Shown piece by piece: positions 3,272-64,000 of a stretch of 64,000 bases of DNA; positions within the stretch are counted from its first letter, which is position 1, and each line of letters opens with the position of its first letter. The notes under the pieces are model-generated. The model was not told the origin of the DNA, searched no databases, and saw only the letters and a program-made list of their open reading frames with translations. The position numbers and the translations under genes are program-made. The stretch lies in the IMG/VR virus record IMGVR_UViG_2541047715_000004. One strand, 5' to 3'. This stretch comes from a virus (lineage: Duplodnaviria; Heunggongvirae; Uroviricota; Caudoviricetes).

Positions 3272-3272
3272 T

Positions 3273-5293: not shown

Positions 5294-5851
5294 ATGACAA
5301 CGATTGTTGCAGGCATCGATATCGAGTCTACGGGACTGGATTTCCTTGCTGGTCATAAAATTATTGAAATCGCAATTACCCGCTATGAACTGGAGACACA
5401 GAGACATATTGATAGTCTGGAGATGCGTTTTAACCCTCGCAGAAACATAGATCCGAAAGCTCAAGCCGTTCATGGCATTTCATTAGAACAGCTCGCAGCT
5501 GAACCTTTGTTGTCAAATCATGCCAGCGAAATTGGCGCTTATATGGGGGCATGTAGTGCGTGGATTGCTCATAACGGCGAAGCGTTTGATATACCATTTA
5601 TTCGACACGAGTTTTCAGGGTATGGAGTAAGACTGCCAGACGTTCCCGTTATAGATACTATGTTATCGGGATTGTGGGCCACAGAAGACGGTAAACGTCC
5701 TCGCCTTGAAGAGTTGGCCTTCTCTCTTGGCTTTATATACGATCATGCCAAAGCACATAGTGCCTTATATGACACAAACTTAATGATGCAATGCTTCTTT
5801 AAGGCACGTAATAAGTACGGATTTTTTAAATTACCCTCTGAAATTGTGTAA
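5294..5851 (+). CDS. DnaQ-like (DEDDh) 3'-5' exonuclease
   Basis: Exo I motif GIDIESTG, Exo III motif HSALYD; 185 aa. Confidence 0.7.
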   Translation: MTTIVAGIDIESTGLDFLAGHKIIEIAITRYELETQRHIDSLEMRFNPRRNIDPKAQAVHGISLEQLAAEPLLSNHASEIGAYMGACSAWIAHNGEAFDIPFIRHEFSGYGVRLPDVPVIDTMLSGLWATEDGKRPRLEELAFSLGFIYDHAKAHSALYDTNLMMQCFFKARNKYGFFKLPSEIV

Positions 5852-6011: not shown

Positions 6012-6821
6012 ATGAGTTCGGTTGAAAATGTAATGACAAATGATGATCTGGACGAGCTGACAGCCATGTTGCAATCACTTGATGAACCAGTAAAAAAAGC
6101 CGCACAGGTTGAAAATACTGATGATATTGACGATCTGCTGCTCGGCCTCGATGCTGGCGTAGCCATGAGTTCTGATGATGTTGCCGAAGAACTGTTCAAT
6201 GAAGAAAAAGCAGGTGATTTCAGCTCTGCTTTAAATGAGTTGGAGTTAGCGCATGAGCCTATAAACGTAATTAACGCTGAAAGTGTTGAATCTGCCGAAA
6301 ACGAGCCAGAACAATTGGGATTGATTGAGGTTGAAGAGTGTGTTGATGTTAATGATGAATTAAAAGTTCAACAGTCAAATGATAGCAACACAAATAAAAA
6401 AGCGCGTACTGCAAGAGGTCCTCGTTTTACTTTAAGTGATAAAGATGATTCGTTTTTCAATAAAGCAGGCTTAGAAACAGATATTTTCTTAGACGCTTAC
6501 GAAAACGCGCCTGTCAAAGCAAAGGATAAGATATTAAACCTTCTTAATTGGTTTAGCGGAGGTCCAGATATTAGTGTTTACACGGTAATTTCCATGAGAC
6601 ACCTTCTCACAGAAAAGAAGGCTACAAGTAATAGTATTAAGATTGCTTTAATGAGCAATCCAGAAAAACCGTATCCGCTTAACACTGCGTCAACTCAGGC
6701 TGGGCAAATGATGGCTGTATTTCCAGCGACAGGAATTGCCGTTAGAGACGGTGGAAATCTAACATTGAACGAAGAATCACCGATCGTTAAGAAGTTTGTA
6801 GCGGAGTACACTATTGGATGA
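6012..6821 (+). CDS. hypothetical protein with strongly acidic N-terminal half
   Basis: 269-aa ORF; first ~110 aa are D/E-rich. Confidence 0.5.
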   Translation: MSSVENVMTNDDLDELTAMLQSLDEPVKKAAQVENTDDIDDLLLGLDAGVAMSSDDVAEELFNEEKAGDFSSALNELELAHEPINVINAESVESAENEPEQLGLIEVEECVDVNDELKVQQSNDSNTNKKARTARGPRFTLSDKDDSFFNKAGLETDIFLDAYENAPVKAKDKILNLLNWFSGGPDISVYTVISMRHLLTEKKATSNSIKIALMSNPEKPYPLNTASTQAGQMMAVFPATGIAVRDGGNLTLNEESPIVKKFVAEYTIG

Positions 6822-13010: not shown

Positions 13011-16000
13011 CTATATCTGCCCACCTACTCCTTTGAACTTTTCAATAAACGTGACGATTTTCTGGAAAACGGTCTGTTTTTTCGTTTTATATTGCGGGTT
13101 TAACGGACTAAGTTTTGGTAATGTCTCGTTTAATTCTGTGCCATTTTCGGTGGCGTATTCGCGTTTTAAAGACGTGCGAATATAGCGTTTCGCCGCCTCT
13201 TCATTGAGATTTTCTTCTTTTATCAATGCTTCTGCTTCACGTTGCTGTTCGCGTTGAGCAAACGTAAAGAATGCCTCAATGATACTGGCTTTGTCTGGTA
13301 AATCATCCAGGTTCGTTTGCTGAATAAAATCGACCACCAGGCCCTCTTTCGCCCGGTTCCCCAGGCTTGAACGAATTAAGCGTTTGACCTCTTCGATCAT
13401 TTCGCCCTTGCCTTTATTTTGTCTGTTGTGTTCGAAAATCAGTCCAAGGATATAATCCAGGTTTATTTCCTGAGACTTCAGCAAATCGACCTCAAAAACT
13501 ACGTCATCCCAGTCAGTGGTTGATTTCTCTTTTTTCTCAGCTTCTTTCTCACGGCGCTGCCAGTCGCGAATATCGTTATAGGCAGAACGATAATCCTGAA
13601 TCTTGCGTTCAGCAGGGAGACGAATTGTTTGCAATTCAGCGAACTTTTCATCATCCACATAATGTTCTGCTTTGAATTTTTCTACCGCAACAGGATCGCT
13701 AAGATCGATTTGTTGCAGGGCTTTCAGCGTGGCAAATTCATCATAGTTTTGCAGGATGTTCTCGGCACGCAGGTATTCACCAAACAGTTTTACGAAGTCT
13801 TTCTTCTCTTTTTCACTTTCAATACTGGCAGGGTCAGGGAACCGTTGTTCCAGTTCTGAAACTACTGCCATAAAGCCGCGTTTAGCTTCACCAGTGGCAG
13901 CATCTGTAAAGCCTTCCATATACTCAGCATAACTCTTTTCTAACACCACATTTTTAGTATTTTTATCACCAAACAGCGTTATGGCATCAATGGTTGAGCG
14001 TTCCAGATCCCGAAAAGTGACGATGTTACCGAAGGTTTTAGTAGCGTCATAAATGCGGTTGGTACGGGAGAATGCCTGCATCAGGCCGTGAAAACGCAAG
14101 TTTTTATCGACGAATAGCGTGTTCAATGTTGGAGCGTCGAAGCCGGTTAAAAACATCCCAACGACAATTAACAGATCGATATCCTGATTTTTAACCCGTT
14201 GGGCTAAATCACGATAGTAGTTCTGAAAACCGTTACTGTCGGTGCTGAAGTTAGTTTTAAAATAGCTGTTATACTCACGAATTGCAGCGTCAAGAAACTC
14301 TTTAGCACTGCTGTCCATTGCGCTGGTATCAAAAGTTTCATCGGAAATTTCACCAATGGCATTTTGTTCTTCATTGGCGGCAAAGGAGAAGATTGTTGCA
14401 ACACGCAGCGGTTTATAGGTAGCCGATTTATTAGCTGCTTCCTCTTGTAACCGTTTAAACGTCGCGTAATAGGCTTTCGCGGCATCCACGCTACTCACTG
14501 CCAGCATGGCATTAAAGCCTTTGGAACCTGGGAAAGTACGGTGGGTCTTCTGGCGGAAGTTATTCAGAATATATTGCGTAATTTCCTGTATACGCATGGG
14601 ATGAAGAAATGCCTGCTGATTTTCAGCCGCACTCAGTTTTTTCTCGTCGGTTTCTGTCTCTAAAGATTTAAACTGTGGCCGCACATCGTTGTAGTCCACC
14701 TTGAATTTGAGCACTTTTTCATCACGAATCGCATCGGTAATTACATACGAATGCAATTCACGACCAAATACGCTGGCGGTCGTTTCTGAGCCTAAGGCGT
14801 TTTCCGGGAAAATAGGTGTGCCGGTAAAACCAAACTGATAATAGCGTTTGAATTTCTTCTTCAGGTTTTTCTGCGCTTCTCCAAACTGGCTGCGGTGACA
14901 TTCATCAAATATAAACACCACTTGCTGATTGTATACAGGCAGGTCGCTTTCTGCTTTCATCAGGTTATTAAGTTTCTGAATAGTGGTGACGATAATTTTG
15001 TTATCGTCCTTATCCAGATTGCGTTTAAGACCTGCGGTATTTTCCGAGCCGTTGACGCTGTCTGGCGAAAAACGCTTATATTCATTCATGGTCTGGTAAT
15101 CGAGGTCTTTCCTGTCGACCACGAAGAAGACTTTATCAATAAAGTCCAGCTCTGTTGCCAGACGCGCGGCTTTAAAGCTGGTGAGGGTTTTACCTGAACC
15201 GGTAGTGTGCCAGATATACCCACCGCTTTCCGGTTTTGACCAGTTCTTCGCTGTAAAGGAACTCTTAATTTTCCACAGAATGCGCTCAGTGGCGGCAATC
15301 TGGTACGGTCGCATCACCAGTAGCGTTTGGCTAACATCGAATACGCTGTAGTTCACTAAGACATTAAGCAGGGTATGTTTCTGGAAAAAGGTGGCGGTAA
15401 AGTCTTTGAGGTCTTTAATCAGCGTGTTGTCTGATTTCGCCCAATTCATGGTGAAGTCAAAACTGTTTTTATCGCGCTTTGTCGTGTTGGCAAAGTAACG
15501 GGTATCGGTGCCGTTGGAAATGACAAACAGTTGCAGATACTTAAACAGAGAATTTTCGCTGTTAAAACTCTCTTTGCTGTAACGATGTATCTGGTTAAAG
15601 GCCTCACGAATCGCCACGCCGCGCTTTTTCAGTTCGATTTGTACCAGCGGTAAGCCATTAACCAGGATCGTGACGTCATAACGGTTAGCATGAGAACCCG
15701 TCTGTTCAAACTGCTGGATAATCTGCACCTTGTTGCGCATGAGATTCTTTTTATCTATCAAATAGATGTTCTCAAGACGCTCGTCATCAAAAATAAAGTC
15801 GCAAATATAGTCGATATGGATTTTACGGGTCTTATCCAGGATGCCATCGCTCGGGTTATCCAGATACTGCTCCGTGAAACGCCGCCATTCGCTGTCATTA
15901 AACACCACACCATTGAGGTTCTGAAGCTGTTCCCGAACGTTGGCCAGCATCGCCGACTGAGATTTTACGGAAATAAATTCATAGCCCTGATTCCGCAGAT

Positions 16001-16127
16001 CCTGAATCAGTTCACGTTCCAGGTCCGATTCGCTCTGGTAGCTGTCGCCTGTTTGCTCGGCTTTGATGTACTTATCAAGAACGATAAAGTTATTGGATTC
16101 AGCAATGGTGTGTGTCTGATGAGTCAT
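13011..16127 (-). CDS. hsdR: type I restriction enzyme R subunit, type IC (EcoR124-like)
   Basis: 1038 aa; Walker [13 protein letters not shown]-box FDECHRS, helicase motifs; N-terminus [20 protein letters not shown] matches my recollection of EcoR124 HsdR. Confidence 0.95.
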
Positions 16128-16248
16128 AGCGCATCCTTTGTGCCGTCTGGCAAGGGCCGGAAGGGCTTTAAGGGCGACTTCCGGCGTGTAAAAAATAGTC
16201 TCTATATAGACCGGATGTTAAGGTGATCCGGTCGGTAGCAATGGTCAA

Positions 16249-17496
16249 TTAGTTACTGATAGTTTCAGGTTTGGGAAAACTGAACAGTAAATCACGATAG
16301 TACTCGTATTGTTTCTGGCGCAACTCGATTTCACGCGGAAGACCTTCGGTGATGGAATTGGTCAAAGCATCAAATTTATCCAGTAATTTCACTATTTTTT
16401 GTTGTTCAACTAGCGATCTTTCAGGAGAATCAGGAAATGGTACTGGTATCATAAGTTTTCTTAAGTTATCATTATAAAGTCTTTTAATAGTTCCACCTTC
16501 AGATATTCCCCATTTTGCTATTTTATAGAAATAGAATAAATATTTATTTAAAACTATTTTTTCATTATTTTCAATCCAGACAATATTGCTATCCTGGAAA
16601 TATGATTCCCTACCATCAAATATAACAGTCCTGCCGATGGTCCCACTGGCAGAAATCAATACTTCGCCAACTTTAGGATAACTATATTTTTCTTTAAATT
16701 CATTAAATAGTTTTCTAGATATATAGGAATCGGGTTCCTTACCAAATGTCCCAATTTTATAAAATGGAATCTCTCCCTCAGAAGATGTTTGTGATTTTAG
16801 GATTCGTTTACACATACGAACTTCACCAATTTCCCCCAAAGCTTTCCACTCAACCTCACCCTCTTTAAAACTCAACAACTGGTCGCGATAGTAGTTGTAT
16901 TGTTTTTTACGCATGCTAAGCTCAGCGGTAAGCTCAGCGGTAAGTGCAGTAAATTTATCCAGAATCCTGACGATTTCAGACTGGATAGCCAGCGACTTTT
17001 CCGGGTTGTTGGGGCAAGGGATGGGGATAAGTAATTTACCTATATCTTTAGCATACAAATGATAAACAGTAGAACCTTTAACCATTTGCAATATCTTTTT
17101 TTTGTTATTTATTATGAAATTACTTAGATATCTACCATCAACACCAGAGCATCTAATAATCAAAATATCGCCGCCTAAAATAACGCCACTTTCTTGAATG
17201 CAACTAGCTGTAGCCAAACCTCTTGGTGTAACGTCTGACGTTGGCATTAGAACATCATTTTTTTCAGATAGAATTGACTCATTGATTGCTTGGTTTGTTT
17301 TTGAGCATACTTTGTCAATTATGGGACCATAATGAGTGAAAAGCTCACCGTAATGAATACAATATCTATTGCCATCTGGAGTTATTTTTTCTTTAGGTAA
17401 AGACTTCCCTTTTAAAAAAGTTGCTAATTTATTTAATGCTACCCACTCAACCTCAGCCCCATCCAGCAGTTTTTCCAGATAACTCAGCTCGCTCAT
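16249..17496 (-). CDS. hsdS: type I R-M specificity subunit, type IC with two divergent TRDs
   Basis: Conserved N-terminal, central ([29 protein letters not shown]) and C-terminal ([41 protein letters not shown]) regions; AT-rich variable TRDs. Confidence 0.95.
16918..16941 (-). repeat. 2 x 12-bp tandem repeat in hsdS central region, encoding TAEL-TAEL
   Basis: + strand AAGCTCAGCGGT twice, then a degenerate third copy. Confidence 0.85.
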
Positions 17497-19055
17497 GCCT
17501 GTACCTCGCTACCTTCAATCTCAGCAACAATCGCATCAATATCTTTACGCAACTGGTCGATTTTGCTGACCGTGGTTTTCAGCTCAGCATTCAGCTCAGC
17601 GATATCGATAATTTCGCGAGTATCTTTCGCTTCCACATAGCTGCTCACCGACAGGTTATAGTCATTCGCGACAACAGTCTCAAACGCAACAGATTTCGCC
17701 AGATGAGCAACATCTTCCTTGCTGGCAAATACCTGCATAATCTGTTCGATATGAGCATCGGTCAGAATGTTGTTGTTAGTCTCTTTTTTGAACAGTTCGC
17801 TGGCATCAATAAACTGAACTTTGGTATCCGTTTTATGTTTAGACAGCACCAGAATATTGACGGCAATAGTGGTGCCAAAGAACAGATTCGGTGCCAGTGA
17901 AATCACGGTTTCGACATAGTTATTGTCGACCAGATACTGACGGATTTTCTGCTCCGCGCCGCCACGGTAAAAAATGCCTGGGAAGCAGACAATCGCAGCG
18001 CGACCTTTGGCCGAAAGATAGTTCAGCGCATGTAATACAAACGCAAAGTCAGCTTTGGATTTGGGGGCCAGAACGCCAGCCGGGGCAAAACGTTCATCGT
18101 TAATCAGCGTCGGGTCATCGCTGCCAATCCATTTCACCGAATACGGCGGGTTAGAAACGATGGCATCAAACGGTTTTTCATCTCTGAAGTGCGGCTCAGT
18201 CAGTGTATTACCCAGCTTGATATCAAACTTGTCGTAGTTGATGTTGTGCAAAAACATGTTCATACGCGCCAGGTTATAGGTCGTATGGTTGATTTCCTGA
18301 CCAAAAAAACCTTCTTCGATGATATGGTCATCAAACTGTTTTTTCGCCTGCAACAACAGCGAACCGGAGCCTGCTGCCGGGTCGTAGATTTTGTTAACGT
18401 GGGTCTGCCCGTGCATAGCCAGTTGTGCAATCAGCTTAGAGACGTGCTGCGGTGTAAAGAACTCGCCGCCGGACTTACCGGCATTCGCCGCATAGTTAGA
18501 AATCAGGAACTCATAGGCGTCACCGAACAGGTCAATCTGATGTTCATGGAAGTCACCAAGTTTTAGCCCTTCAACCCCTTTCAGAACCGCAGCCAAGCGG
18601 GCATTTTTATCTTTAACGGTGTTACCCAGGCGGTTACTGGTGGTATCGAAATCAGCAAACAAACCTTTGATGTCAGCTTCTGAAGGATAACCGTAAGCAG
18701 AACTTTCGATAGCAACGAAGATGCTGTTTAAATCTGCATTCAGTCTGTCATTAGTATTTGCTTTCGCAGCTACGTTGCAGAAAAGCTGACTGGGGTAGAT
18801 GAAGTAGCCTTTAGTTTTGATGGCATCGTCTTTAATGTCATCAGTAATTACGCTGTCATCCAGTTTCGCATAACAGATACTGTCATCACCGGCTTCAATA
18901 TAACTGGAAAAATTTTCGCTGATAAAACGGTAAAAAAGCGCGCCCAAAACGTACTGCTTAAAATCCCATCCATCGACTGAACCCCTGACATCGTTAGCAA
19001 TTTGCCAGATCTGGCGATGAAGCTCTGCACGTTGTTGAATACTTGTCATTTTCAT
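17493..19055 (-). CDS. hsdM: type I R-M N6-adenine DNA methyltransferase subunit
   Basis: 520 aa; motif [14 protein letters not shown]; stop overlaps hsdS start (ATGA). Confidence 0.95.
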
Positions 19056-20158: not shown

Positions 20159-20184
20159 AGGCGGTGCAATGCACCGCCTTTTAT
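20159..20184. terminator. bidirectional terminator between convergent UmuD'-like gene and apbC
   Basis: AGGCGGTGCAATGCACCGCCT followed by TTTAT. Confidence 0.6.
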
Positions 20185-21284
20185 CACACTGCGCGGAATG
20201 CGATTTCGCCAGGTATTACTTCACCTTGCCAATACATTTGGGCGGCAACGCGATCTGCGAGGTCACGATAAATAGCCGTAAATTCGCTATCTGGACGACT
20301 AATAACGGTTGGTGTTCCGTTATCCAGATCTTCACGAAGAGAGATATGAAGTGGCATTTGGCCTAACAACTGCGTGTTGTATTTCTCGGCCAGTTTCTGT
20401 GCGCCACCGGTGCCAAAAATTGGCTCGTGATGACCGCAGTTACTGCAAATATGCACACTCATGTTTTCGACGATACCCAGTACCGGCACTTCGACTTTTT
20501 CGAACATCACAATGCCTTTCTTCGCATCGATCAGCGCGATGTCTTGCGGCGTAGTTACCACAACCGCACCAGTTACAGGAATGTTCTGCGCCAGCGTCAA
20601 CTGAATATCACCAGTGCCCGGCGGCATATCGAGAACGAGATAGTCCAGATCAGGCCATAGAGTTTCCTGCAACATCTGCATCAGCGCCTTGCTGGCCATC
20701 GGTCCACGCCACACCATTGCATTGTCGTCGGTGACCAGATAACCAATAGAGTTGGTTGCCAGGCCATGAGACATGATAGGTGCCATGTGAGTACCGTCAG
20801 GTGAGGTTGGACGTTGGTTTTCCGCGCCCAGCATGGTTGGAATTGATGGACCATAGATATCGGCATCCAAAATACCAACTTTCGCACCTTCAGCAGCCAA
20901 CGCCAGTGCCAGGTTTACCGCCGTGGAGGATTTACCCACGCCGCCCTTGCCTGAGCTGACGGCGATAATGTTCTTAACGCCATTAATGCCTGGTTGGTTT
21001 TTGACGCGCTTAAGCGTGGCAATGTTGTACGACAGCTTCCAGTCAATAGCCTTTGCGCCAGTGATACGGAGCAGATCACCACTACATTGCTCTTTCAGGT
21101 CTTCAAAAGGCTTATTCCACACGAAAGGCATGATTAGTTCGACATGCAGTGTGTCATCCATCAACGCAACATGGTGTAACGCTTTAAGCGTAGTCAGGTT
21201 GTGTTTCAGGGTTGGGTGCTGAAAATTAGCCAGCGTACCGGCTACCATTGCTCTCAGGGCATCCGGCGATTTGGACTCGCTCAT
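20184..21284 (-). CDS. apbC: Fe-S cluster carrier ATPase ApbC/Mrp
   Basis: 366 aa, GKGGVGKS P-loop; near-identical to E. coli Mrp as I recall it. Confidence 0.95.
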   Translation of the reverse strand: MSESKSPDALRAMVAGTLANFQHPTLKHNLTTLKALHHVALMDDTLHVELIMPFVWNKPFEDLKEQCSGDLLRITGAKAIDWKLSYNIATLKRVKNQPGINGVKNIIAVSSGKGGVGKSSTAVNLALALAAEGAKVGILDADIYGPSIPTMLGAENQRPTSPDGTHMAPIMSHGLATNSIGYLVTDDNAMVWRGPMASKALMQMLQETLWPDLDYLVLDMPPGTGDIQLTLAQNIPVTGAVVVTTPQDIALIDAKKGIVMFEKVEVPVLGIVENMSVHICSNCGHHEPIFGTGGAQKLAEKYNTQLLGQMPLHISLREDLDNGTPTVISRPDSEFTAIYRDLADRVAAQMYWQGEVIPGEIAFRAV

Positions 21285-21441: not shown

Positions 21442-23475
21442 ATGACCCAAGTCGCGAAGAAAATTCTGGTGACGTGCGCGCTGCCGTACGCTAACGGCTC
21501 AATCCACCTCGGCCATATGCTGGAGCACATCCAGGCTGATGTCTGGGTTCGTTACCAGCGAATGCGCGGCCACGAGGTTAATTTCATCTGTGCCGACGAT
21601 GCCCACGGTACGCCGATCATGCTGAAAGCACAGCAGCTTGGTATCACACCGGAGCAGATGATTGGCGAAATGAGTCAGGAACACCAGACTGATTTCGCAG
21701 GCTTTAACATCAGCTATGACAACTATCACTCGACGCACAGCGAAGAGAACCGCCAGCTGTCTGAGCTTATCTATACTCGCCTGAAAGAGAACGGTTTTAT
21801 TAAAAACCGCACTATCTCTCAGTTGTACGACCCGGAAAAAGGCATGTTCCTGCCGGATCGTTTTGTGAAAGGCACCTGCCCGAAATGTAAAGCGCCAGAT
21901 CAATACGGCGATAACTGTGAAGTCTGCGGCGCAACATATAGCCCGACTGAATTGATCGAGCCGAAATCGGTGGTTTCTGGCGCTACCCCGGTAATGCGTG
22001 ATTCCGAACACTTCTTCTTTGATCTGCCTTCTTTCAGCGAAATGTTGCAGGCATGGACCCGCAGCGGCGCGTTGCAGGAGCAGGTGGCGAACAAAATGCA
22101 GGAATGGTTTGAATCCGGCCTGCAACAGTGGGATATCTCCCGAGATGCGCCTTACTTCGGTTTTGAAATTCCGAACGCGCCGGGCAAATATTTCTACGTC
22201 TGGCTGGACGCGCCGATTGGCTACATGGGTTCCTTCAAGAATCTGTGCGACAAACGCGGCGACACTACCAGCTTCGACGAATACTGGAAGAAAGACTCCA
22301 CCGCCGAGCTGTACCACTTCATCGGTAAAGATATCGTTTACTTCCACAGCCTGTTCTGGCCTGCCATGCTGGAAGGCAGCAACTTCCGCAAGCCGACCAA
22401 CCTGTTTGTTCACGGCTATGTGACGGTGAACGGCGCGAAGATGTCCAAGTCTCGCGGCACCTTTATTAAAGCCAGCACCTGGCTGAATCATTTTGACGCC
22501 GACAGCCTGCGTTACTACTACACTGCGAAACTCTCTTCGCGCATTGATGATATCGATCTCAACCTGGAAGATTTTGTTCAGCGCGTGAATGCCGATATCG
22601 TGAACAAAGTGGTTAACCTGGCCTCCCGTAATGCAGGTTTTATCAACAAACGTTTTGACGGCGTGCTGGCAAGCGAACTGGCTGACCCGCAACTGTACAA
22701 AACCTTCACTGATGCCGCTGAAGTGATTGGTGAAGCGTGGGAAAGCCGCGAATTTGGCAAAGCTATCCGTGAAATCATGTCACTGGCTGACCTGGCTAAC
22801 CGCTATGTTGATGAACAGGCTCCGTGGGTGGTGGCGAAGCAGGAAGGCCGCGATGCCGACCTGCAGGCGATTTGCTCTATGGGCATTAACCTGTTCCGCG
22901 TGCTGATGACGTACCTGAAACCGGTACTGCCGAAACTGACTGAACGTGCAGAAGCATTCCTGAATACAGAACTGACCTGGGATGGTATCCAGCAACCGCT
23001 GCTGGGCCATAAAGTGAATCCGTTCAAGGCACTGTATAACCGTATCGATATGAAACAGGTGGAAGCACTGGTGGAAGCATCCAAAGAAGAAGTGAAAGCC
23101 ACAGCTGCACAGGTAACTGGCCCACTGGCTGACGACCCGATTCAGGAAACCATCACCTTTGACGACTTCGCCAAAGTTGACCTGCGTGTGGCGCTGATTG
23201 AAAACGCGGAGTTTGTCGAAGGTTCTGACAAACTGCTGCGTCTGACACTGGATCTCGGTGGTGAAAAGCGTAATGTCTTCTCAGGCATCCGTTCTGCTTA
23301 TCCAGACCCACAGGCACTGATTGGTCGTCACACCATTATGGTGGCTAACCTGGCTCCGCGTAAAATGCGCTTCGGTATCTCCGAAGGCATGGTGATGGCT
23401 GCTGGCCCCGGCGGGAAAGATATCTTCCTGTTAAGCCCGGATGCTGGTGCTAAACCAGGCCACCAGGTTAAGTAA
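21442..23475 (+). CDS. metG: methionine--tRNA ligase
   Basis: 677 aa from ATG 21442; HLGH and KMSKS motifs; near-identical to E. coli MetG as I recall it; divergent from apbC as in E. coli. Confidence 0.95.
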
Positions 23476-54466: not shown

Positions 54467-55047
54467 TTCATGTGCAGCTTGGCGGCCCTATGGCCAAACA
54501 TTTTGGCCGCCACTGGCATCTAAAGGTGCGCAATACAAAACAGGCTCTGGATTTAATTGAGGCCAACAAGCCTGGGTTTAAAGCATGGATGAAGCGCAAT
54601 ATCAAAACCTATGACCGTTACCACATCCAGATCACCAATAAACAGGGCCACAAGTGGTCTGTTGACGAAAGTGAATATCAGATGATGGGGCAGTCTGACA
54701 ACATTGCCAAAATCCGCATTACACCTGTTCCGCGAGGAAGCGGTGGATCTGCTTTTGGGTGGTTTCAGACGGTAGTAGGGGCCGCTTTGTTGGTTGTATC
54801 GGCGGTAGTGATGCCTGCTTTAGCACCTCTCGGTTTGTCACTGATGATGGGCGGCATATCACAAATCATATCGCCGCAAGCCACTAACGAAAGTGTGAGA
54901 CAGGCAGATAACTCGAACTCTTATTATTTCGACGGCCCTCAAAATACAGAAAACCAGGGCAACCCAGTACAACTTATCTATGGCGAGGAAATTCTGGTTG
55001 GCTCACAGGTTGTGAGTTCTTCAATCACGATTGACCAGCTAATGTAA
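54454..55047 (+). CDS. tail assembly protein (lambda gpI-like)
   Basis: GTG start after GGAGA; hydrophobic C-terminal region. Confidence 0.65.
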   Translation: MSELVHVQLGGPMAKHFGRHWHLKVRNTKQALDLIEANKPGFKAWMKRNIKTYDRYHIQITNKQGHKWSVDESEYQMMGQSDNIAKIRITPVPRGSGGSAFGWFQTVVGAALLVVSAVVMPALAPLGLSLMMGGISQIISPQATNESVRQADNSNSYYFDGPQNTENQGNPVQLIYGEEILVGSQVVSSSITIDQLM

Positions 55048-55065
55048 ACAAGGATTTTTTTGAAC

Positions 55066-58000
55066 ATGGAACAGTTCAAGAAGAAAAAGTTACCGCTGTT
55101 TATTGCAGGTGCGGGTGGTAAAAAAAGCAGCAAAAGCTCTAGCCGTACACCGGTTGAAGCCGACGATACCGTAAATTCTCGTGCAATGGCCGCTATCCTC
55201 GATCTTCTTGGGGAAGGGGTAATTGGCGGCTTGGTAAATGGCGCAAGATCTATTTTTGTCGACGATCTGCCGATTGTAAATGAAGACGGTTCCTCCAACT
55301 TCAGCGGAATCACATGGGATTTTCGCGACGGTTCGCAAGACCAGACTCCAATGTCTGGCTTTGATTTCGTTGAAACGCCTAAATCCGTCAATATCCAGTT
55401 AAAAAAAACACATTATGTAACGGTTTCAATCGATAACGATGAAGCTGATCGGGTTCGTGTCATCATGAAGTTTCCTTCTTTGCGAAGCATAGATAAAAAA
55501 ACTGGTGACACGAACGGTACAACCGTTGAGTACAAGTTCCAGATAGCAAATGGCGACTCAACATTTGTAGATGTGGTCGCAGAAGGTGAAAAAAGCGTTG
55601 GCATTAAGCTAACAGCAAAGAAGACAGGTGTTTATTACCGTAGCTATGAGCTGAAGCTGCCTAAGCCTGGACGCGCGTACAAGGTTCGTGTAGTCCGTAT
55701 TACCGATGATAACAGCAGCCAGTATCTCTATAACGATACATGGGTGGACTCAATAGGTGAGATTGTAGATACACCGATGAACTACCCAAACTCTGTGCTG
55801 GTGGGTCTGAAGGTTAATTCTGAGCAGTTTGGTAGCACCATGCCATCTCGTTCGTATTTGGTACGTGGATTAAAAATTCGCGTGCCGTCAAACTACAACG
55901 AGGCCAGCAACACTTATGATGGTGTATGGGATGGCACTTTTAAGCTGTTGTCTTCTTCAAACCCCGCGTGGATTCTCTTTGATTTGCTTACCAATGCTCG
56001 ATATGGCCTTGGTCAGTATGTGTCGGAATCTATGATTGACCTCGGCCAGCTATACCAGATCGGTCGATATTGTGACGAAGAGGTTGATGATGGCTTTGGT
56101 GGTAAAGAGAAACGCTTTGCAATCAATACGCAGATCACCAGTCGACAGGACGCATACCGATTAATTCAGGATATTGCCGGTGCATTCCGCGGTATGGTGT
56201 TTTGGGCTGGTGGCATGGTTAACATCATGCAGGATAGCCCATCAGATCCGGTAATGATGTTTACCAACTCTAACGTCAAAGATGGATTGTTTACCTATAA
56301 AGGTTCTGCGCGTAAAGATCGCCCATCCGTTGCGCTCGTAACCTACAACAACAAGGAGGACGGTTATAAGCAAAACATCGAGTACGTTGAAGATCAGGAC
56401 GCAATGCGCCGTTATGGTGAGCGTAAGACAGAAGTCGTAGCATTTGGCTGTACAAGCCGAGGGCAGGCTCACCGAGTTGGTTTGTGGCTTTTATATACCG
56501 CCAGAATGGAGTCGGATGTAATTACATTTACTGCCGGCTTAGACGCGTCATTTCTGATGCCTGGTGAAACCGTTCTGATTCAGAACAAATATCGCGCAGG
56601 CAAACGTAACTCAGGTCGAATTGTGGCGTTTACCAAAAACAGCGTCACACTCGATGCGCCGGTGTCGTTAGCCAAAGGCGGCTGCTTTATTCGAATACTG
56701 AATCATGAAGGCAAAATCGTTGAACGCGATGTTCTTGAAACTGGCGAAAATATAACAAAAGTTACGTTTTCAAAATCCCTGTCTTCGGCTGAAACGCCTG
56801 TTTTGAACGGCGTCTGGACTATTACAGAACCAGACCTCGAACCTATGCGCGTTCGCATCGTTAACATCGCGCAGGGGGAAACGCCGGGTAGCTTTGACAT
56901 CACCGCTGTTGAGAACAATCCGTCTAAATATGAGGCGATCGACAATGGTGCAACGCTTATCCCGCAGAATACGACGGTATTGGACCCGACTTACTCCAAG
57001 CCGTCTAATTTGCAAATCACTGAAGGAACTTACCTCTCAAGCCCGGGCAACCTGTCAGTAAAACTGACTGCAACATGGGAAGGGAAATCTCCAGAGTATT
57101 GGATCAGTTGGCGACGTTCTGATGAAAACAATGTATCGAACTGGCAATCGGCGCGTGTAACCGAAGAGCAATACGAAATCGTTAATGTCGCGGAGAATGG
57201 ACGCTACGACTTCCAACTGTATGCGGTTTCATTCAACGGTAAAAAAACAGAGATTATCAGTGCCGTTTATCAGGTGTTGGGCACAATGACACCGCCGGAT
57301 TCCCCAACGTCATTAACGGCCGTTGGAGACTATCGTAATGTAATACTGAATTGGGTTAATCCAGATTCGGTAGACCTTGATCACATTAATGTTTACGCAT
57401 CCCAGACCAACAATCTGGATACGGCGAAACTGATCGCAGAGTCTGCAAGCACCACCTTTACACATGCTGGTCTTGGGGATAGCGAAACGTGGTATTACTG
57501 GGTTCGAGCATCGAACAAGCGAGGTATGTTAAGTCCTCCGAACTCAAACTTGGGTACAGAGGCGACAACTCGCGATGTACTGTCGTTCCTGACTGGCAAA
57601 ATTACATCTTCCGAGCTTGGTCAGGCTCTGCTTGAGGACATCAACAGCAAAGCCTCTCAAGAAGCAGTTGACGAGTTAAATGAGCATATCAACCAGAGCG
57701 TCGAATCTTTGGAGGGGGCGGTAAACGACGTTAAGGAAGATATAGCTGAATTAGATAAGCAGTTCAGCGATAACCTCGCGGATTTTGAAATAAAATTCAA
57801 CGAGCGTAGCGATGCTTTGGAGAACGCACAAACCGAGCTTAAAGGTGAGGTTTCGGCAACGATTGACAAGGTCAATGAAGCGTTTGAAAAAATTGATGCT
57901 ACTGATGCTGCAATTGTTGAAATCGAAAACACCGTATCTGAACACGATAAAGCTCTCGCTAATACAGTCGAGGCAATAAAGGCTGCAAGAGATGAAGCGG

Positions 58001-59793
58001 CGGCTCTTATTGCTAAGGAAAGCGAGGCTCGTGTTGAAGGCGATGCTGCAAACGCTAAACAACTGGAAGTGTTGCAGTCAACGGTAGAGGAAAGCTCCGC
58101 TGCCGTTGAAGAAATGAAAAAGACGGTTGCAGAGGTCGATCGTGCCAGTGCAGAACTGACTACGAACATTGAGGCGTTAGCCAAAACAAATATTGACCTG
58201 GCTCTTCGTCAAGATGAAGACCAGCACAAGCAGATGGTCAATAACGCGAAGATCGCAACAACACAGAAAACCTTTGCTGATGATATGTCTGCAATGGCCA
58301 CGAAGGTTGAGGAAATTCGCGTAGAAATTGGCGAAGACATTAAGGCCAGTATTCTGGAAGAGTCCACCGCGCGTGCCGATGGCGATGAAGCGTTGGCAAA
58401 GCGTGTCACTCAGCTGCAATCTAAGTTTGAAGGAGATATCAGCGCGGCGATTAGTACAGAGCAGGAGGCTCGTACATCTGCCGATGAAGCTCTGACGACA
58501 CAGATCACTCAGCTTGAGTCGAAAGTAAGCAACGATATCGTCGCAGCTATTAAGGAAGAGCAAGAAGCCCGAGCAACGGAAGATTCGGCTCTGGCAAGCC
58601 AGATCACCCAACTTCAGGCAAAGGTTGATGATGATATTTCTGCTGCAATACGTAGTGAGCAGGAGGCTCGAGCAAGCGGGGACTCTGCGTTAGCCAAACA
58701 AATAAACCAGCTTCAGTCAAAGGTTGACGGTGATATATCCGCTGCCATCACTCAGGAGCAGGAGGCCAGGGCAAGTGCTGACCAGGCGCTCTCACGAGAA
58801 ATTAACAGCCTGCGAGCACAAACCGGAACTGATATTGCCGCAGCGGTTGCTGTAGAGACAAAAGCAAGGACTGATGCCGATAGTGCATTGTCTACCCAGA
58901 TTACGTCTCTTACAGCAAAAGCTAATGATCTCGAGGCGTCTCTTGCCAGAGAAACAACGGCTCGTGCAGATGGTGATACCGCTTTAACAAAAGAGGTTTC
59001 AAGTTTAAAAGCACAGACAGCGAAAGATATTAGTGCGGCCGTTGCAGTTGAAACGCAGGCTCGAACTGATGCTGACTCGGCGTTGTCGTCTCAGATCACC
59101 AAGCTGACCTCTCAATACAAAGAGGATATTAAAGCGGCTGTAGCAACCGAAACGAAAACGCGTACAGAGCAAGATGCTGCATTGGCGACTCAAATCACAA
59201 ACTTAGAGTCTCAAACGGCAGCCAACATTTCCGCGGCGGTAACAACTGAAACGACAGCGAGAATGCAGGCAGATAATGCTCTGAGTGGGCGAATCGATAC
59301 TCTGAAAGCAGAGGTGGATGGAAATACCGCGACAATTCAACAGCAGGCAACAGCTATTGCTGATACCAACAAAAAAGTGTCAACCGCGTGGACGTTGAAA
59401 ATGGAAACTTCAACGAGCGGAGGGCAGAAGTATGTTGCTGGTATTGCGCTTGGTATCGACACCACTGGCCTTTCTCAGTTTTTGGTGCAGGCTGACAGGT
59501 TTGGTTTGGTCAACTCTGTTAACGGGAAGATCACAACGCCATTTGTTATCGAAAACAGTATCGCCTATATGAATGGAGCGTATATCAAGGATGGCACAAT
59601 CACCAATGCAAAAGTAGGCGATCTGCAATCTACCAATTTTGTTAGCGGTAGATCTGGATGGCGATTCGGCAAAAATGGAACGCTTGAGATCAACGGTAAT
59701 AGCGGCGGCAATGGGCGATTGGTTATAAATGGTCAGCGGATTGACGTTTATGACGATAACAACGTCTTACGAGTAAGAATTGGCCGTCTGTGA
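55066..59793 (+). CDS. central tail fiber / host specificity protein (lambda gpJ-like) with C-terminal coiled-coil repeats
   Basis: 1575 aa after K/I; about 10 tandem 33-aa repeats near C-terminus. Confidence 0.85.
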   Translation: MEQFKKKKLPLFIAGAGGKKSSKSSSRTPVEADDTVNSRAMAAILDLLGEGVIGGLVNGARSIFVDDLPIVNEDGSSNFSGITWDFRDGSQDQTPMSGFDFVETPKSVNIQLKKTHYVTVSIDNDEADRVRVIMKFPSLRSIDKKTGDTNGTTVEYKFQIANGDSTFVDVVAEGEKSVGIKLTAKKTGVYYRSYELKLPKPGRAYKVRVVRITDDNSSQYLYNDTWVDSIGEIVDTPMNYPNSVLVGLKVNSEQFGSTMPSRSYLVRGLKIRVPSNYNEASNTYDGVWDGTFKLLSSSNPAWILFDLLTNARYGLGQYVSESMIDLGQLYQIGRYCDEEVDDGFGGKEKRFAINTQITSRQDAYRLIQDIAGAFRGMVFWAGGMVNIMQDSPSDPVMMFTNSNVKDGLFTYKGSARKDRPSVALVTYNNKEDGYKQNIEYVEDQDAMRRYGERKTEVVAFGCTSRGQAHRVGLWLLYTARMESDVITFTAGLDASFLMPGETVLIQNKYRAGKRNSGRIVAFTKNSVTLDAPVSLAKGGCFIRILNHEGKIVERDVLETGENITKVTFSKSLSSAETPVLNGVWTITEPDLEPMRVRIVNIAQGETPGSFDITAVENNPSKYEAIDNGATLIPQNTTVLDPTYSKPSNLQITEGTYLSSPGNLSVKLTATWEGKSPEYWISWRRSDENNVSNWQSARVTEEQYEIVNVAENGRYDFQLYAVSFNGKKTEIISAVYQVLGTMTPPDSPTSLTAVGDYRNVILNWVNPDSVDLDHINVYASQTNNLDTAKLIAESASTTFTHAGLGDSETWYYWVRASNKRGMLSPPNSNLGTEATTRDVLSFLTGKITSSELGQALLEDINSKASQEAVDELNEHINQSVESLEGAVNDVKEDIAELDKQFSDNLADFEIKFNERSDALENAQTELKGEVSATIDKVNEAFEKIDATDAAIVEIENTVSEHDKALANTVEAIKAARDEAAALIAKESEARVEGDAANAKQLEVLQSTVEESSAAVEEMKKTVAEVDRASAELTTNIEALAKTNIDLALRQDEDQHKQMVNNAKIATTQKTFADDMSAMATKVEEIRVEIGEDIKASILEESTARADGDEALAKRVTQLQSKFEGDISAAISTEQEARTSADEALTTQITQLESKVSNDIVAAIKEEQEARATEDSALASQITQLQAKVDDDISAAIRSEQEARASGDSALAKQINQLQSKVDGDISAAITQEQEARASADQALSREINSLRAQTGTDIAAAVAVETKARTDADSALSTQITSLTAKANDLEASLARETTARADGDTALTKEVSSLKAQTAKDISAAVAVETQARTDADSALSSQITKLTSQYKEDIKAAVATETKTRTEQDAALATQITNLESQTAANISAAVTTETTARMQADNALSGRIDTLKAEVDGNTATIQQQATAIADTNKKVSTAWTLKMETSTSGGQKYVAGIALGIDTTGLSQFLVQADRFGLVNSVNGKITTPFVIENSIAYMNGAYIKDGTITNAKVGDLQSTNFVSGRSGWRFGKNGTLEINGNSGGNGRLVINGQRIDVYDDNNVLRVRIGRL

Positions 59794-59886
59794 TGGTGGA
59801 AAAAAATTTTTATATCGGTAAAAATAGGTGAGTATCTACTTAATGGCGGGCAAGGATAGCCCGCCAAATCAAGGAGCATATTCAAC

Positions 59887-62800
59887 ATGTGGTACAGGGA
59901 AGGTACTATCACATTTACACAGGGCAGCAATACTCTGGTTGGGGCAGGGACAGCCTGGAACGTAACAGCTAATGGTGTGTTGCCGGGGATGATCGTCATT
60001 GGCCCCGACAATAAGCTGTATGAGATCAAGCGCGTAACCAGTGATACGAACATTGTTCTCTCAGAACCTTATACCGGCGAAACTCAGTCTGAAGTTCCGT
60101 GCCGAATCATTACGACCTATGAAGGCGACTTAACACAGTTTAGCGCGCGCTTTACTGCGCTAATGTCGCGTATGTCGGCTGATTCCAAGTCCATACGCAG
60201 TTGGTTGACTGCGCTGGATGAGGTGACAATCGAGCGTGAAGACGGTACAGAAGTGACCGTTAAGCCGCTAATGCAGATCGTCAACGAGCACAACGAAAAC
60301 GTTGAGTGGTATAAAAATAACACTGACGCGATTGATGCTGCTGGCGACAAAGCTCGTGAGGCGGCGGCCAGTGCTGCCGCAGCAGCAAAAAGCGCCAATG
60401 CCGCTGGAGAAAAAGCCTCTCAAGCGTCTCAAAGTGCATCCGCTGCGGCATCCTCACAAAGTGCCGCAAGTGCGAGTGCAACTGCTGCGAAAAAATCTGA
60501 AACGAATGCTGCAGCGTCACAAAAATCTGCAGCCACTTCTGCATCCACCGCGACCACGAAGGCGTCAGAAGCTGCCACCTCAGCCCGGGATGCGGCGGCC
60601 TCAAAAGAGGCAGCGAAATCATCAGAAACGAGCGCAGCCTCGAGCGCCAGTAATGCCGCTTCCTCGGCAACGGCGGCAGGAAATTCCGCGAAGGCGGCAA
60701 AAACGTCCGAGACGAACGCCAGGTCTTCTGAAACGGCAGCGGGACAGAGCGCCTCGGCTGCGGCAGGCTCAAAAACAGCGGCTGCGTCGTCTGCCAGTGC
60801 CGCGTCAACAAGTGCCGGGCAGGCCTCAGCCAGTGCCACCGCCGCCGGAAAATCGGCAGAAAGTGCCGCATCGTCTGCTTCAACTGCCACAACGAAGGCT
60901 GGCCAAGCCACTGAACAGGCCAGCGCAGCAGCGAGGTCTGCTTCCGCAGCGAAGACATCCGAAACGAACGCGAAAGCGTCGGAAACCCGTGCAGAATCCT
61001 CAAAAACGGCAGCCGCATCGTCCGCCAGTTCGGCGGCGTCATCGGCATCATCGGCGTCTGCTTCAAAAGATGAGGCGACCAGACAGGCGTCAGCAGCGAA
61101 GGGCAGCGCCACGACGGCATCCACGAAAGCAACAGAGGCGGCAGGCAGTGCGACGGCAGCATCTCAGAGCAAAACTGCTGCTGAATCCGCTGCGACCCGT
61201 GCGGAAGCTGCTGCTGATCGTGCTGAAGAGATTGCCGGTGCAGTTGCGATGGAAGACGCAAGCCTTACAACTAAAGGTGTTGTGAAACTTAGCAGTGCTG
61301 TCGACAGCACCAGTGAATCGCTGGCCGCAACGCCAAAAGCAGTTAAAGCAGCCAATGACAATGCGAATAGCAGGGTGCCATCTAACCGAAAAGTTAACGG
61401 TAAAGCACTGACTGCGGATATCAAATTAACGCCGAAAGATATTGGTACTTTAAATTCAGTAACGATGTCTTTCTCTGGCGGGGCAGGGTGGTTCAAACTG
61501 GCTACGGTTACCATGCCACAAGCGAGTTCCATCGTTTACATCGCATTGATTGGTGGCGCTGGTTACAACGTCGGCTCCCCACATCAGGCAGGCATTTCAG
61601 AACTGGTTCTACGAGCAGGCAATGGAAACCCCAAAGGGATTACAGGTGCTTTGTGGAAGCGTACAGCTGTCGGATTAACGAATTTCGCCTGGATCAACAC
61701 ATCCGGCGATACATATGATATTTACGTTGAGATTGGCAATTATGCGACTCGTGTAAATATCCATTGGGATTGTACTGCAAATGCGACAGTTTCTATTTAT
61801 ACCTCGCCAACATATTCAGCGAGTAAGCCTTCCAGCGTTACCGATGGTGTTGTTTATACGATGTATAGCACACATCAGAAACCGACGCCGTTAGATATTG
61901 GAGCACTGCCAACAACCGGAGGAACAGTTTCAGGTCCGTTGTCTGTTACAGGTGGATTAACTGGTTCATTGAATGGTAATGCAAGTACAGCCACGAAATT
62001 GCAGACGGCAAGATCTATCGGTGGAGTTGTTTTCGACGGTTCTGCAAATATTAACCTTCCAGGTGTAAACACTACGGGTAATCAGAACACCACTGGTAAT
62101 GCTGCAACTGCTACAAAACTTCAGACTGCAAGAAAAATATCCGGTGTTCCATTTGATGGTTCTACTGATATCACTTTAACCGCTGCGCATGTTGCCGCTT
62201 TCGCAAGAAGGGCAACAGGGTCATATGCGGATGCTGATGGTGGCGTGCCGTGGAATGCTGAATCTGGTGCTTACAATGTAACTAGAACAGGCGACAGTTA
62301 TATTCTTGCCAACTTTTATACCGGTGTAGGTAGTTGCCGGACCCTGCAGATGAAGGCGCATTACAGAAATGGAGGTCTGTTCTACCGTTCCTCAAGAGAT
62401 GGCTATGGTTTTGAAAGTGGTTGGGAGCAGGTTTACACGACTGGATTTATGCCTCAGCCGGCTGATATAAACGCGCCAACCGCTGCCGCTGGATGGTTAA
62501 ATAGTGGTAACGGAACGGCATTTACGACTGCTCAATTTATAACTTGGCTAAATAATCAGGGGGCATTTACAAACAAACATTGGATCGCACGGTGCTCATG
62601 GGCTTACGCCAACAATAATTATATAGACGACACTGGTTGCGGTAGGATCGATCTATCTGGTTCCGTGATTGAGGTGTTTAGTAATAAGGCAACAAGCCAC
62701 TACACTATTCGTGTTACAACGACAACAACATCGGGTCATGGTGGTGTTAACAATGCGGAATTTATTTATGTGTACAATGGAAGTGATTATGCACCAGGCT

Positions 62801-64000
62801 GGCGTCGTTCTTATAACACTAGAAACAAACCAACAGCTTCTGATGTAGGAGCATTATCGCTTTCTGGAGGAGCGTTAACTGGCGGATTAACTGCTGCTGG
62901 CGAGATTATTTCAAAATCGGCGAATGGTCTGCGCATTGCCTACGGAAACTACGGATTCTTTATCCGAAACGATGGTTCAAGCACATACTTCATGTTGACC
63001 GATTCGGGTAACAGCCTGGGAACCTATAATAGGTTAAGGCCGCTTATCATTAACAATGCCAATGGTGCTGTTACGATCGGTAATGGACTCAATGTTACTG
63101 GCGGCATCAATGGTAGTTTGAACGGTAATGCTGCAACTGCAACAAAACTGCAAACAGCACGCACAATAGGCGGCGTGTCATTCGATGGCTCCGCCAATAT
63201 CAACCTGCCGGGTGTAAACATTGCTGGTAACCAGAACACAACCGGTAATGCAGCGACAGCGACCAAGTTGCAGACAGCATGTACTATCAACGGCGTCTCG
63301 TTTGATGGTTCTAAAAATATTGAGCTAACGGCGGAAGATTTAAATCTACAGGAATTTATTAATAAAGCAAATAATGCCGTTCAGCGTTCAGGCGATATCT
63401 TGTCCGGCGGACTTACTTTTGAAAACGACTCAATCCTTGCCTGGATTCGAAATACTGACTGGGCAAAGATTGGATTTAAAAATGATGCCGATGGTGACAC
63501 TGATTCATACATGTGGTTTGAAACAGGCGACAACGGCAATGAATATTTCAAATGGAGAAGCCGCCGGAGCACCACAACAAAAGACCTGATGACGCTGAAA
63601 TGGGATGCGCTAAATATTCTGGTAAATGCCGTCATTAATGGCAGTCTTGGAGTTGGTACGACGAATGCGTTAGGTGGTAGCTCTATTGTTCTTGGTGATA
63701 ATGACACCGGATTCAAACAGAATGGTGATGGTATTCTGGATGTTTACGCTAATAGTCAGCGAGTATTCCGCTTTCAGAATGGAGTTGCTATTGCTTTTAA
63801 AAACATTCAGGCTGGTGATAGTAAAAAGTTCTCGCTATCCAGCTCCAACACCTCCACAAAGAATGCAACGTTTAATTTATGGGGTGCTTCAACCCGTCCA
63901 GTAGTTGCAGAGTTAGGCGATGAGGCAGGATGGCATTTCTATAGCCAGCGAAATACAGATAACTCGGTAATATTTTCTGTTAACGGTCAGATACAGCCCA
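59887..64000 (+). CDS. side tail fiber protein, 3' end beyond window
   Basis: ATG 59887 after AAGGAG; frame appears open to window end; Ala/Ser-rich segment then repeated GNAATATKLQTAR...FDGS fibre motifs. Confidence 0.75.
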   Translation, partial: MWYREGTITFTQGSNTLVGAGTAWNVTANGVLPGMIVIGPDNKLYEIKRVTSDTNIVLSEPYTGETQSEVPCRIITTYEGDLTQFSARFTALMSRMSADSKSIRSWLTALDEVTIEREDGTEVTVKPLMQIVNEHNENVEWYKNNTDAIDAAGDKAREAAASAAAAAKSANAAGEKASQASQSASAAASSQSAASASATAAKKSETNAAASQKSAATSASTATTKASEAATSARDAAASKEAAKSSETSAASSASNAASSATAAGNSAKAAKTSETNARSSETAAGQSASAAAGSKTAAASSASAASTSAGQASASATAAGKSAESAASSASTATTKAGQATEQASAAARSASAAKTSETNAKASETRAESSKTAAASSASSAASSASSASASKDEATRQASAAKGSATTASTKATEAAGSATAASQSKTAAESAATRAEAAADRAEEIAGAVAMEDASLTTKGVVKLSSAVDSTSESLAATPKAVKAANDNANSRVPSNRKVNGKALTADIKLTPKDIGTLNSVTMSFSGGAGWFKLATVTMPQASSIVYIALIGGAGYNVGSPHQAGISELVLRAGNGNPKGITGALWKRTAVGLTNFAWINTSGDTYDIYVEIGNYATRVNIHWDCTANATVSIYTSPTYSASKPSSVTDGVVYTMYSTHQKPTPLDIGALPTTGGTVSGPLSVTGGLTGSLNGNASTATKLQTARSIGGVVFDGSANINLPGVNTTGNQNTTGNAATATKLQTARKISGVPFDGSTDITLTAAHVAAFARRATGSYADADGGVPWNAESGAYNVTRTGDSYILANFYTGVGSCRTLQMKAHYRNGGLFYRSSRDGYGFESGWEQVYTTGFMPQPADINAPTAAAGWLNSGNGTAFTTAQFITWLNNQGAFTNKHWIARCSWAYANNNYIDDTGCGRIDLSGSVIEVFSNKATSHYTIRVTTTTTSGHGGVNNAEFIYVYNGSDYAPGWRRSYNTRNKPTASDVGALSLSGGALTGGLTAAGEIISKSANGLRIAYGNYGFFIRNDGSSTYFMLTDSGNSLGTYNRLRPLIINNANGAVTIGNGLNVTGGINGSLNGNAATATKLQTARTIGGVSFDGSANINLPGVNIAGNQNTTGNAATATKLQTACTINGVSFDGSKNIELTAEDLNLQEFINKANNAVQRSGDILSGGLTFENDSILAWIRNTDWAKIGFKNDADGDTDSYMWFETGDNGNEYFKWRSRRSTTTKDLMTLKWDALNILVNAVINGSLGVGTTNALGGSSIVLGDNDTGFKQNGDGILDVYANSQRVFRFQNGVAIAFKNIQAGDSKKFSLSSSNTSTKNATFNLWGASTRPVVAELGDEAGWHFYSQRNTDNSVIFSVNGQIQP

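Follow-up and report, generated by a model that had tools for sequence, protein, structure and literature searches.

The described fibres that come closest to the gene treated here are the side tail fibre Stf of Ur-lambda, its K-12 Rac counterpart StfR, and the fibres of Mu (S/S'), P1/P7 (S) and the P2-like phage P88 (H). The virion structure of Ur-lambda, published in 2025, shows a trimeric side fibre in which Stf residues 102-393 are the proximal coiled-coil domain (PMC12617516). The invertible systems of Mu, P1 and the P2-like phages carry crossover sites, an inverted tip and an invertase, and in P88 the layout runs from the fibre gene through tfa, an inverted tfa and an inverted alternative tip to the DNA invertase. 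This work deals with a gene at the end of a 64,000-nucleotide (nt) stretch of a Caudoviricetes virus (IMGVR_UViG_2541047715_000004, the whole of which is called the window below), in which the frame opening at ATG 59887 encodes a side tail fibre with two separated copies of an 87-amino-acid (aa) repeat. Positions written q are nucleotide positions within this gene (q1 = ATG 59887).

Like the genes for Stf and StfR, the one studied here sits after J and before tfa, and its product has an Ala/Ser heptad coiled coil followed by PF03406. Like the fibre genes of Mu, P1/P7 and P88, it is accompanied by a Tfa/U chaperone gene; residues 424-716 of P88 H match its distal 293 aa (aa 1150-1442) at 96% identity, a likeness of about the same degree (~96%) extending over tfa, the Mu structures (5yvq, 8ju3) align to its modules, and its second repeat copy resembles the inversion-boundary region of P1/P7. 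It also departs from each of these systems. The StfN collar domain (residues 1-91) is not homologous to aa 1-127 of this fibre: in blastp, residues 1-200 of lambda orf-401 found no match in the fibre's N-terminus and only fibre residues 202-496 aligned. The same aa 1-127 match phrog_3299, 6129 and 22609 at E<=1e-78, as well as more distant PHROG tail-fibre families. The lambda Stf rod has 29 heptads against 43 here (and 47 in phage 2H10), and lambda Stf ends in a gp37-type OmpC-binding tip, whereas the distal half here is of the Mu S / S' / P2 H type, lambda orf-314 (the gp37-type tip) giving no blastp match to the fibre. S-like and S'-like modules stand in series in one polypeptide, in an order unlike that of either Mu protein; unlike the invertible systems, this one has no intact crossover site or inverted tip; and the virion tail genes are lambda-like, not of a contractile type.

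The identity of the gene as a side tail fibre, put forward in a preliminary description made from the letters alone, is borne out by its J-like and tfa context, by the homology of its centre to lambda Stf and K-12 Rac StfR, and by that of its distal part to Mu S, Mu S' and the P2-like H fibres. Comparison with E. coli prophage side tail fibres, which that description had recommended, finds the fibre's centre 86-95% identical to stf genes in most E. coli genomes. We consider it very probable that this is a modular, recombinant side tail fibre gene whose repeats represent a widespread motif; judged from their sequences, the two copies are best read as ancient motif copies joined by modular recombination, and not as the outcome of a duplication within the gene. 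The observation of the repeat itself is correct and well beyond chance, and no new mechanism is required to account for it.

The two repeat copies and their motif

The copies were compared by local alignment of the two protein halves (blastp of the protein against itself gave only the trivial hit). They align ungapped, with 68 of 87 residues (78%) and 172 of 261 bases (66%) identical, and the DNA of the gene hits itself between the copies at E = 6e-27. A repeat with shared protein sequence and differing synonymous sites had been noticed by eye as a unit of ~70 aa at 61,970-62,190 and 63,110-63,330; it is real, and longer than it had seemed. The advised comparison of protein with DNA self-similarity brings out how far the silent sites have moved: third positions differ in 55 of the 87 codons, and the proportion of differences is 0.77 at synonymous sites (pS, saturated) against 0.19 at nonsynonymous ones (pN). 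The same codon is used at 24 of the 68 identical residues, where 25.2 +/- 3.8 would be expected under independent codon choice, so that the silent sites are fully randomised, and the copies share no identical run longer than 13 nt in register, or 17 nt when the register is left free. We considered, and rejected, the idea that selection had driven the codons further apart as a means of avoiding self-deletion, this codon count being that of plain saturation.

The preliminary description took the repeat for an internal duplication that had diverged in its DNA. The sequence relation stands, whereas the within-gene duplication is made the poorer reading by the random codon choice, by closer relatives elsewhere and by the occurrence of the 40-aa unit, in tblastn, in at least 350 phage records. 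A true duplication of the 87-aa unit in this gene or its direct ancestor, perhaps together with the KPTxxD(I/V)GAL linker upstream of it and followed by silent divergence, would account for the collinear, gapless alignment of the copies, for their common layout of two sub-repeats (the GNA motifs of the four start at aa 697, 737, 1080 and 1120) and for the linker that precedes both, at a distance of 15 aa from copy 1 and of 82 aa from copy 2, where a gp34-type domain intervenes. Local duplication of the 40-aa unit does occur, as its tandem number varies among close relatives (three in Cyrano). We nevertheless find such an origin unlikely, since beside the saturation of the silent sites, copy 1 has counterparts at 95-98% identity in other phages (phi458, Cyrano) and copy 2 is 87.6% identical to its closest outside DNA (P7 Sv' / RCS47 Sc), against 66-71% between the copies themselves. 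With relatives that close and silent sites saturated, any duplication predates the spread of the blocks and cannot be tied to this gene.

That the two-copy layout is an artefact of assembly, or a chimera, can practically be dismissed. Repeats in fibre genes can indeed mislead assemblers, but the 4114 bases of 59887-64000 recur at 100% identity in pHH107-1, an E. coli plasmid of 109.7 kb, and at essentially that level in two further ~110-kb plasmids (NZ_OZ121086, compared base by base, has 1 difference), the three being independent and complete (Canada, Cambodia, cattle). The first 3272-3461 bases, with both copies or nearly so, are found in many more records, and a DNA identity as low as that between the copies would not confuse an assembler.

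Each copy is a tandem pair of 40-aa units with the consensus N-x-x-L-N-G-N-A-A-T-A-T-K-L-Q-T-A-R-x-I-x-G-V-x-F-D-G-S-A-N-I-x-L. Its carriers include the S fibres of P1, P7 and D6, T-even gp37 proteins (with one copy each), P2-like phages and phages of Acinetobacter, Aeromonas and Pseudomonas, and it matches more than 20 PHROG families, one of them a head decoration family. Among the close relatives, Cyrano has five copies, pSLy3 four, AH04 four (including a Cys-variant at aa 1121), phi458 two and 2H10 one. Units of the form GNAATATKLQTAR gave zero Pfam hits even at E<=10; Pfam's own 'Phage tail fibre repeat', PF03406, matches a different motif of this protein (aa 459-499), and a literature search for the motif string returned nothing relevant. 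A profile built from 12 units matched the C-terminal stalk of the phage L protein Dec (6e3c, E = 2.6e-4; residues 98-134, NAxTAxKLxTAR...FDGSAN) and the PhiM1 tail fibre gp47 (8vbx, E = 2.3e-3), in both of which the loop is 7 residues longer than in the unit here. These matches suggest a fold for the motif, probably a short trimeric beta-helix, which would act as a joint between modules.

Mosaic blocks, junctions and the fibre tip

Over the leading 80-84% of the 4114 bases, many plasmids beyond the three above, and the phages CMS-2020a and Cyrano, show 94-99% identity. The related records encode a lambda-like tail set (tape measure, L, K, I, J) together with head and plasmid partition genes, and we take these elements to be SSU5-type phage-plasmids. 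In the rest of the window, identity to pHH107-1 is no more than ~97.6%, and in the search of E. coli records only three carry at least 80% of the whole fibre gene; its particular combination of blocks is therefore uncommon. The fibre genes of Cyrano, CMS-2020a, pSLy3 and the AH04 plasmid share its position and its first 763-1153 aa, at 97-99% DNA identity, and differ from it in their distal parts; the switch falls at copy 1 in Cyrano, and in the other three inside copy 2 or where it ends (Table 1). The pSLy3 fibre gene, with its other distal part, has no annotated tfa after it, unlike those of pHH107-1 and the AH04 plasmid. On the distal side, the block shared with P88, taken with tfa, covers 1390 nt from q3505 to 34 nt beyond the tfa stop, at 95.9% identity.

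Junctions were surveyed in a spread sample of 60 among 4951 matching E. coli records, in which most chromosomal matches were prophage stf genes, including K-12 stfR. The matches end in recurrent classes, at q525-545, 830, 1301-1319, 1461-1485 (the PF03406 region, where many lambdoid homology blocks stop), 2146-2277, 2528, 3419-3461 and 3505. About half of these classes lie in or beside the two copies, which together span 12% of the gene; this apparent clustering of junctions at both motif copies was assessed after the fact and is suggestive.

Other modules lie between and beyond the copies. Following copy 1, aa 771-867 correspond to residues 324-420 of Mu S' (8ju3) and to Pfam gp37_C (PF12604, E = 8.5e-6), and aa 860-984 to residues 201-324 of the same protein. 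The T4 gp34 C-terminal trimerisation family PF21446 matches above its threshold at aa 956-1055, with a partial second copy in the distal cassette (E = 3.2e-11), and aa 956-1080 align with T4 gp34 (4uxe) and with Mu S residues 270-338. Further on, aa 1145-1253 match Mu S (5yvq) residues 163-271 and aa 1354-1441 its C-terminal tip, residues 413-503, the similarity of the tip being only moderate.

With a distal cassette so close to that of an invertible segment, it could be asked whether the repeats are working parts of a Gin/Cin/Min-type inversion, or of a shufflon, that switches the fibre tip. In favour of this, the end of copy 2 coincides with the place of the crossover site in P88 (the variable region of P88 H starts at residue 424, which equals residue 1150 here, the first after copy 2), and the related lambdoid fibres of 2H10 and phi458 adjoin invertase genes. 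The inverted repeats of P88 (record 3939-3964 and 6617-6642) differ by 2 and 4 mismatches from what we take to be the Mu gix sequence. At the equivalent site here only 13 of 26 bases match the P88 site (our own count from the printed alignment). The best gix-like site in a scan of the whole 64-kb window has 7 mismatches in 26, whereas the P88 control gave 0-2. The 7 kb surrounding the fibre gene hold no inverted repeat, the 3 kb downstream of it contain no alternative tip in inverted orientation, and the part of pHH107-1 that was inspected, ~57 of its 109.7 kb, carries no annotated invertase, from which it follows that the fibre is fixed. The copies themselves, moreover, are direct repeats with at most 17 consecutive identical bases. 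An active inversion system is rejected, as there is no inverted repeat in those 7 kb and no intact site in the window, and a role of the repeats in any such switch is very improbable.

If the gene is a recombinant of modules, as we favour, four blocks could be told apart. The first would be an N-terminus specific to the phage-plasmids. The second, reaching as far as copy 1, would comprise the coiled coil and mid-section of a lambdoid Stf, and the third a series of modules resembling those of Mu S' and gp34 that closes with copy 2, much like the end of a P1/P7-type constant region. The fourth would be the tip with tfa, which may derive from the invertible segment of a P2-like phage or be common to both, the machinery for inversion not having come along and the fibre thus remaining fixed. 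While the block boundaries can be read off the alignments, the direction of these transfers is something that we infer. The two 87-aa repeats would then be two occurrences of the widespread motif, each a tandem pair. Selection at the protein level may keep the motif similar across fibres, and so provide in-frame homology where fibre genes of different phages recombine.

In the assembled fibre the N-terminal domain (aa 1-127) would sit on the tail, followed by the rod of 43 heptads, the beta-rich chain of modules and a tip of the Mu S / P2 H type. The tip would be folded by the downstream Tfa chaperone and mediate the first, reversible binding to the surface, probably to the lipopolysaccharide core. 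The choice of this receptor is a guess that draws on the fibres of Mu G(+) and P2. In Mu S', as in the alternative P88 tip, the counterpart of aa 771-867 stands directly before the tip domain (in P88 this holds for the part equivalent to aa 824-867), and in the Pfam gp37_C family, too, such modules are found beside or at the C-terminal end of the fibre. It is tempting to speculate that the block between the repeats (aa 767-1062), as a former sub-terminal module, still binds a surface sugar, giving two binding sites in series. We regard this as improbable; if true, a lateral site in mid-shaft and a Tfa-dependent tip would confer dual specificity on one unbranched fibre with no inversion switch.

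Several points weigh against the interpretation favoured here. The same pattern of copies would result if a duplication had taken place long ago in an ancestral fibre and had then spread. The clustering of junctions comes from about ten classes chosen post hoc, several junctions lie elsewhere (q525-545, q1301-1319, q2528), and the high-identity block of P88 begins 37 nt past the crossover-site position and not at the site. Both the receptor and the oligomeric state derive from homologues. As for the fold of the motif, the beta-helix of the Dec stalk is itself a homology model (PMC6449081), which makes it a suggestion only, and the AlphaFold2 monomer model of aa 660-1160 is unusable, with a mean predicted local distance difference test score (pLDDT) of 32.5.

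The Ala/Ser rod, the reading frame and other features of the window

The segment that the preliminary description placed at 60,330-61,230, as encoding almost only A, S, T, K and E, was computed to span aa 151-450 (nt 60337-61236), where these five residues make up 84-92% of each 50-aa block. The composition is thus as stated, while calling the segment low-complexity describes it incompletely, for it is strictly periodic, predicted helical and homologous to the Stf coiled coil. Its 43 heptads carry Ala at position 2 in every case (43/43), Ser at position 5 in 33/43 and Ala at position 6 in 30/43. Offsets that are multiples of 7 give a self-identity of 0.433 and all others one of 0.204, a difference of 0.228, whereas the largest difference in 500 shuffles was 0.028. 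In the single-chain AlphaFold2 model aa 128-470 are helical (pLDDT mostly 70-83). The heptad DNA is 81.8% identical to lambda stf (orf-401) over 379 nt, with 54-72% identity at the aa level, and the gaps against lambda inside the heptad run measure 105 and 7 residues, each a whole number of heptads. Tandem Repeats Finder returned nothing over 55000-64000, so that neither the heptads nor the 40-aa units are tandem repeats at the DNA level. On this evidence from sequence and prediction, the segment is a long, regular coiled coil and not disordered low-complexity protein, and by homology the fibre would be homotrimeric. Coiled coils rise ~0.15 nm per residue, at which the rod would measure ~45-50 nm.

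Long open reading frames (ORFs) in other frames of the heptad region, which the preliminary description had called spurious, are indeed present. Measured against phage 2H10, pN/pS is 0.22 for the fibre frame and 1.75-3.3 for four other frames. For the two longest ORFs, whose frames have pN/pS >=1.75, real overlapping genes are accordingly rejected. The antisense frame of the 231-aa ORF has a pN/pS of 0.20; it has its third codon positions in common with the fibre frame, and I take its value to mirror that frame and not to discriminate for that ORF. Public records annotate opposite-strand ORFs over such heptads as hypothetical, among them lambda orf206b (record 5148-5768) and phi458 Orf45 (2965-3702). 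These annotated antisense ORFs are judged to be by-products of the GCN/TCN/ACN-rich codon use of the heptads.

The fibre frame was checked for an overlooked stop, which the preliminary description had named as what would refute it, and the 1371 codons from ATG 59887 to 64000 hold none. The full-length gene measures 4329 nt (1442 aa) in the 100% identical pHH107-1 and in the plasmid with the single difference; in the identical records tfa (175 aa, product matching phrog_136) begins 3 nt past the fibre stop. At the other end, a J-like tail tip ORF (55060-59793, +) immediately precedes the fibre gene. The start at 59887 is correct, since the PHROG tail-fibre families align with the fibre from residue 1 and AAGGAG stands 10 nt 5' of the ATG; no NCBIfam family matches the protein. 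Among near-identical RefSeq DNAs the start is given both at 59887 (1442 aa, 'phage tail protein') and at 60271 (1314 aa, 'hypothetical protein'), one record placing the start of the coding sequence 384 nt later. Between the J-like and the fibre gene there is a GC-rich hairpin (GGCGGGC-AAGGATA-GCCCGCC, 59845-59865), not a typical intrinsic terminator as the T run after it is missing.

Table 1. Features of the fibre gene, ORFs in other frames, and blocks of DNA shared with other records (q, nucleotide position within the gene)
Feature	Position	Strand	Basis or identity
Side tail fibre gene	59887..64000, runs off the window; would stop at window-equivalent 64215	+	Stop-free frame; identical plasmid genes
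N-terminal domain, aa 1-127, presumed tail attachment	59887..60267	+	PHROG families
Proximal coiled-coil rod, 43 unbroken heptads x-A-x-x-S-A-T/S	60337..61236	+	Periodicity; AlphaFold2; lambda homology
Other-frame ORF, 327 aa, judged spurious	60302-61285	+	ORF list; pN/pS above 1
Other-frame ORF, 326 aa, judged spurious	60281-61261	-	ORF list; pN/pS above 1
Other-frame ORF, 231 aa, judged spurious	60429-61124	-	ORF list; frame pN/pS 0.20
PF03406 phage tail fibre repeat (SLTTKGVVKLSS...AATPKAVK), aa 459-499	61261..61383	+	Pfam E = 1.8e-19; Mu S 105-155
Module of unknown fold, aa 500-679, ending in KPTPLDIGAL linker (aa 665)	61384..61923	+	PHROG tail-fibre families
Repeat copy 1, two tandem 40-aa GNAxTATKLQTAR...FDGS motifs, aa 680-766	61924..62184	+	Local alignment
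Two Mu S' variable-region modules, order opposite to Mu S'	62197..62838	+	8ju3 alignment
Gp34_trimer-type domain, second linker KPTASDVGAL at aa 981	62752..63072	+	PF21446 E = 8.8e-32
Repeat copy 2, two tandem 40-aa motifs, aa 1063-1149	63073..63333	+	Local alignment
Decayed Gin/Cin-type crossover-site equivalent, only right half-site TCTACAGGAA (LQE) kept	63329..63354	+	In-register alignment with P88 3939-3964
Putative distal receptor-binding cassette	63391..64000, block continues through tfa to window-equivalent 64780	+	P88_4B11 identity
Cyrano block	q1-2291, ends at end of copy 1		97.8%
Lambdoid phi458 block	q525-2273, ends at end of copy 1		95.4%
2H10 block	q2209-2528, starts at second unit of copy 1		82.5%
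pSLy3 block	q1-3272, ends inside copy 2		99.4%
AH04 plasmid block	q1-3461, ends just after copy 2		98.9%
CMS-2020a block	q1-3443, to end of copy 2		96.8%
P2-like P88_4B11 block	q3505-4329, starts 58 nt after copy 2		98.7%

Some other features of the window deserve mention. The J-like protein (1577 aa) has its own series of 33-aa repeats at about aa 1118-1390 (DISAAI..EQEAR..D.AL..QI.QLQSKV), with self-identity peaks at offsets 33, 66 and 99; as Tandem Repeats Finder was blank there too, these repeats have also diverged in their DNA. A divergent apbC-metG pair of chromosomal type occupies 20184-21284 (-) and 21442-23475 (+). It is only ~90% identical to the E. coli chromosomal copy, while of the 216 records that reach >=95% identity almost all are accounted for by its copies on plasmids (222 places), which points to a long-resident or foreign second methionyl-tRNA synthetase gene. 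Finally, ORFs of 1038, 415 and 520 aa within 13011-19055 (-) align with the annotated type I restriction-modification genes hsdR/S/M of a related plasmid.

What the construction means

The gene is a new example of an ordinary, mosaic phage side tail fibre, and belongs to known phage biology. Alone, the finding is of little importance, as mosaic fibres, conserved joint motifs and the exchange of tip-chaperone cassettes among unrelated phages are already known; mosaic fibre genes and cassette exchange have reportedly been described since the early 1990s, by Haggard-Ljungquist in 1992 and by Sandmeier in 1992 and 1994. Its practical side lies in annotation, where identical RefSeq records disagree on the start codon of this fibre gene, and where an Ala/Ser region of this sort should be neither masked as low complexity nor mined for overlapping genes. 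As to the motif, the 40-aa GNAxTATKLQTAR...FDGS unit is common in phages and yet has no Pfam family. It marks natural in-frame junctions between the parts of their fibres, and is for that reason useful for the engineering of chimeric ones.

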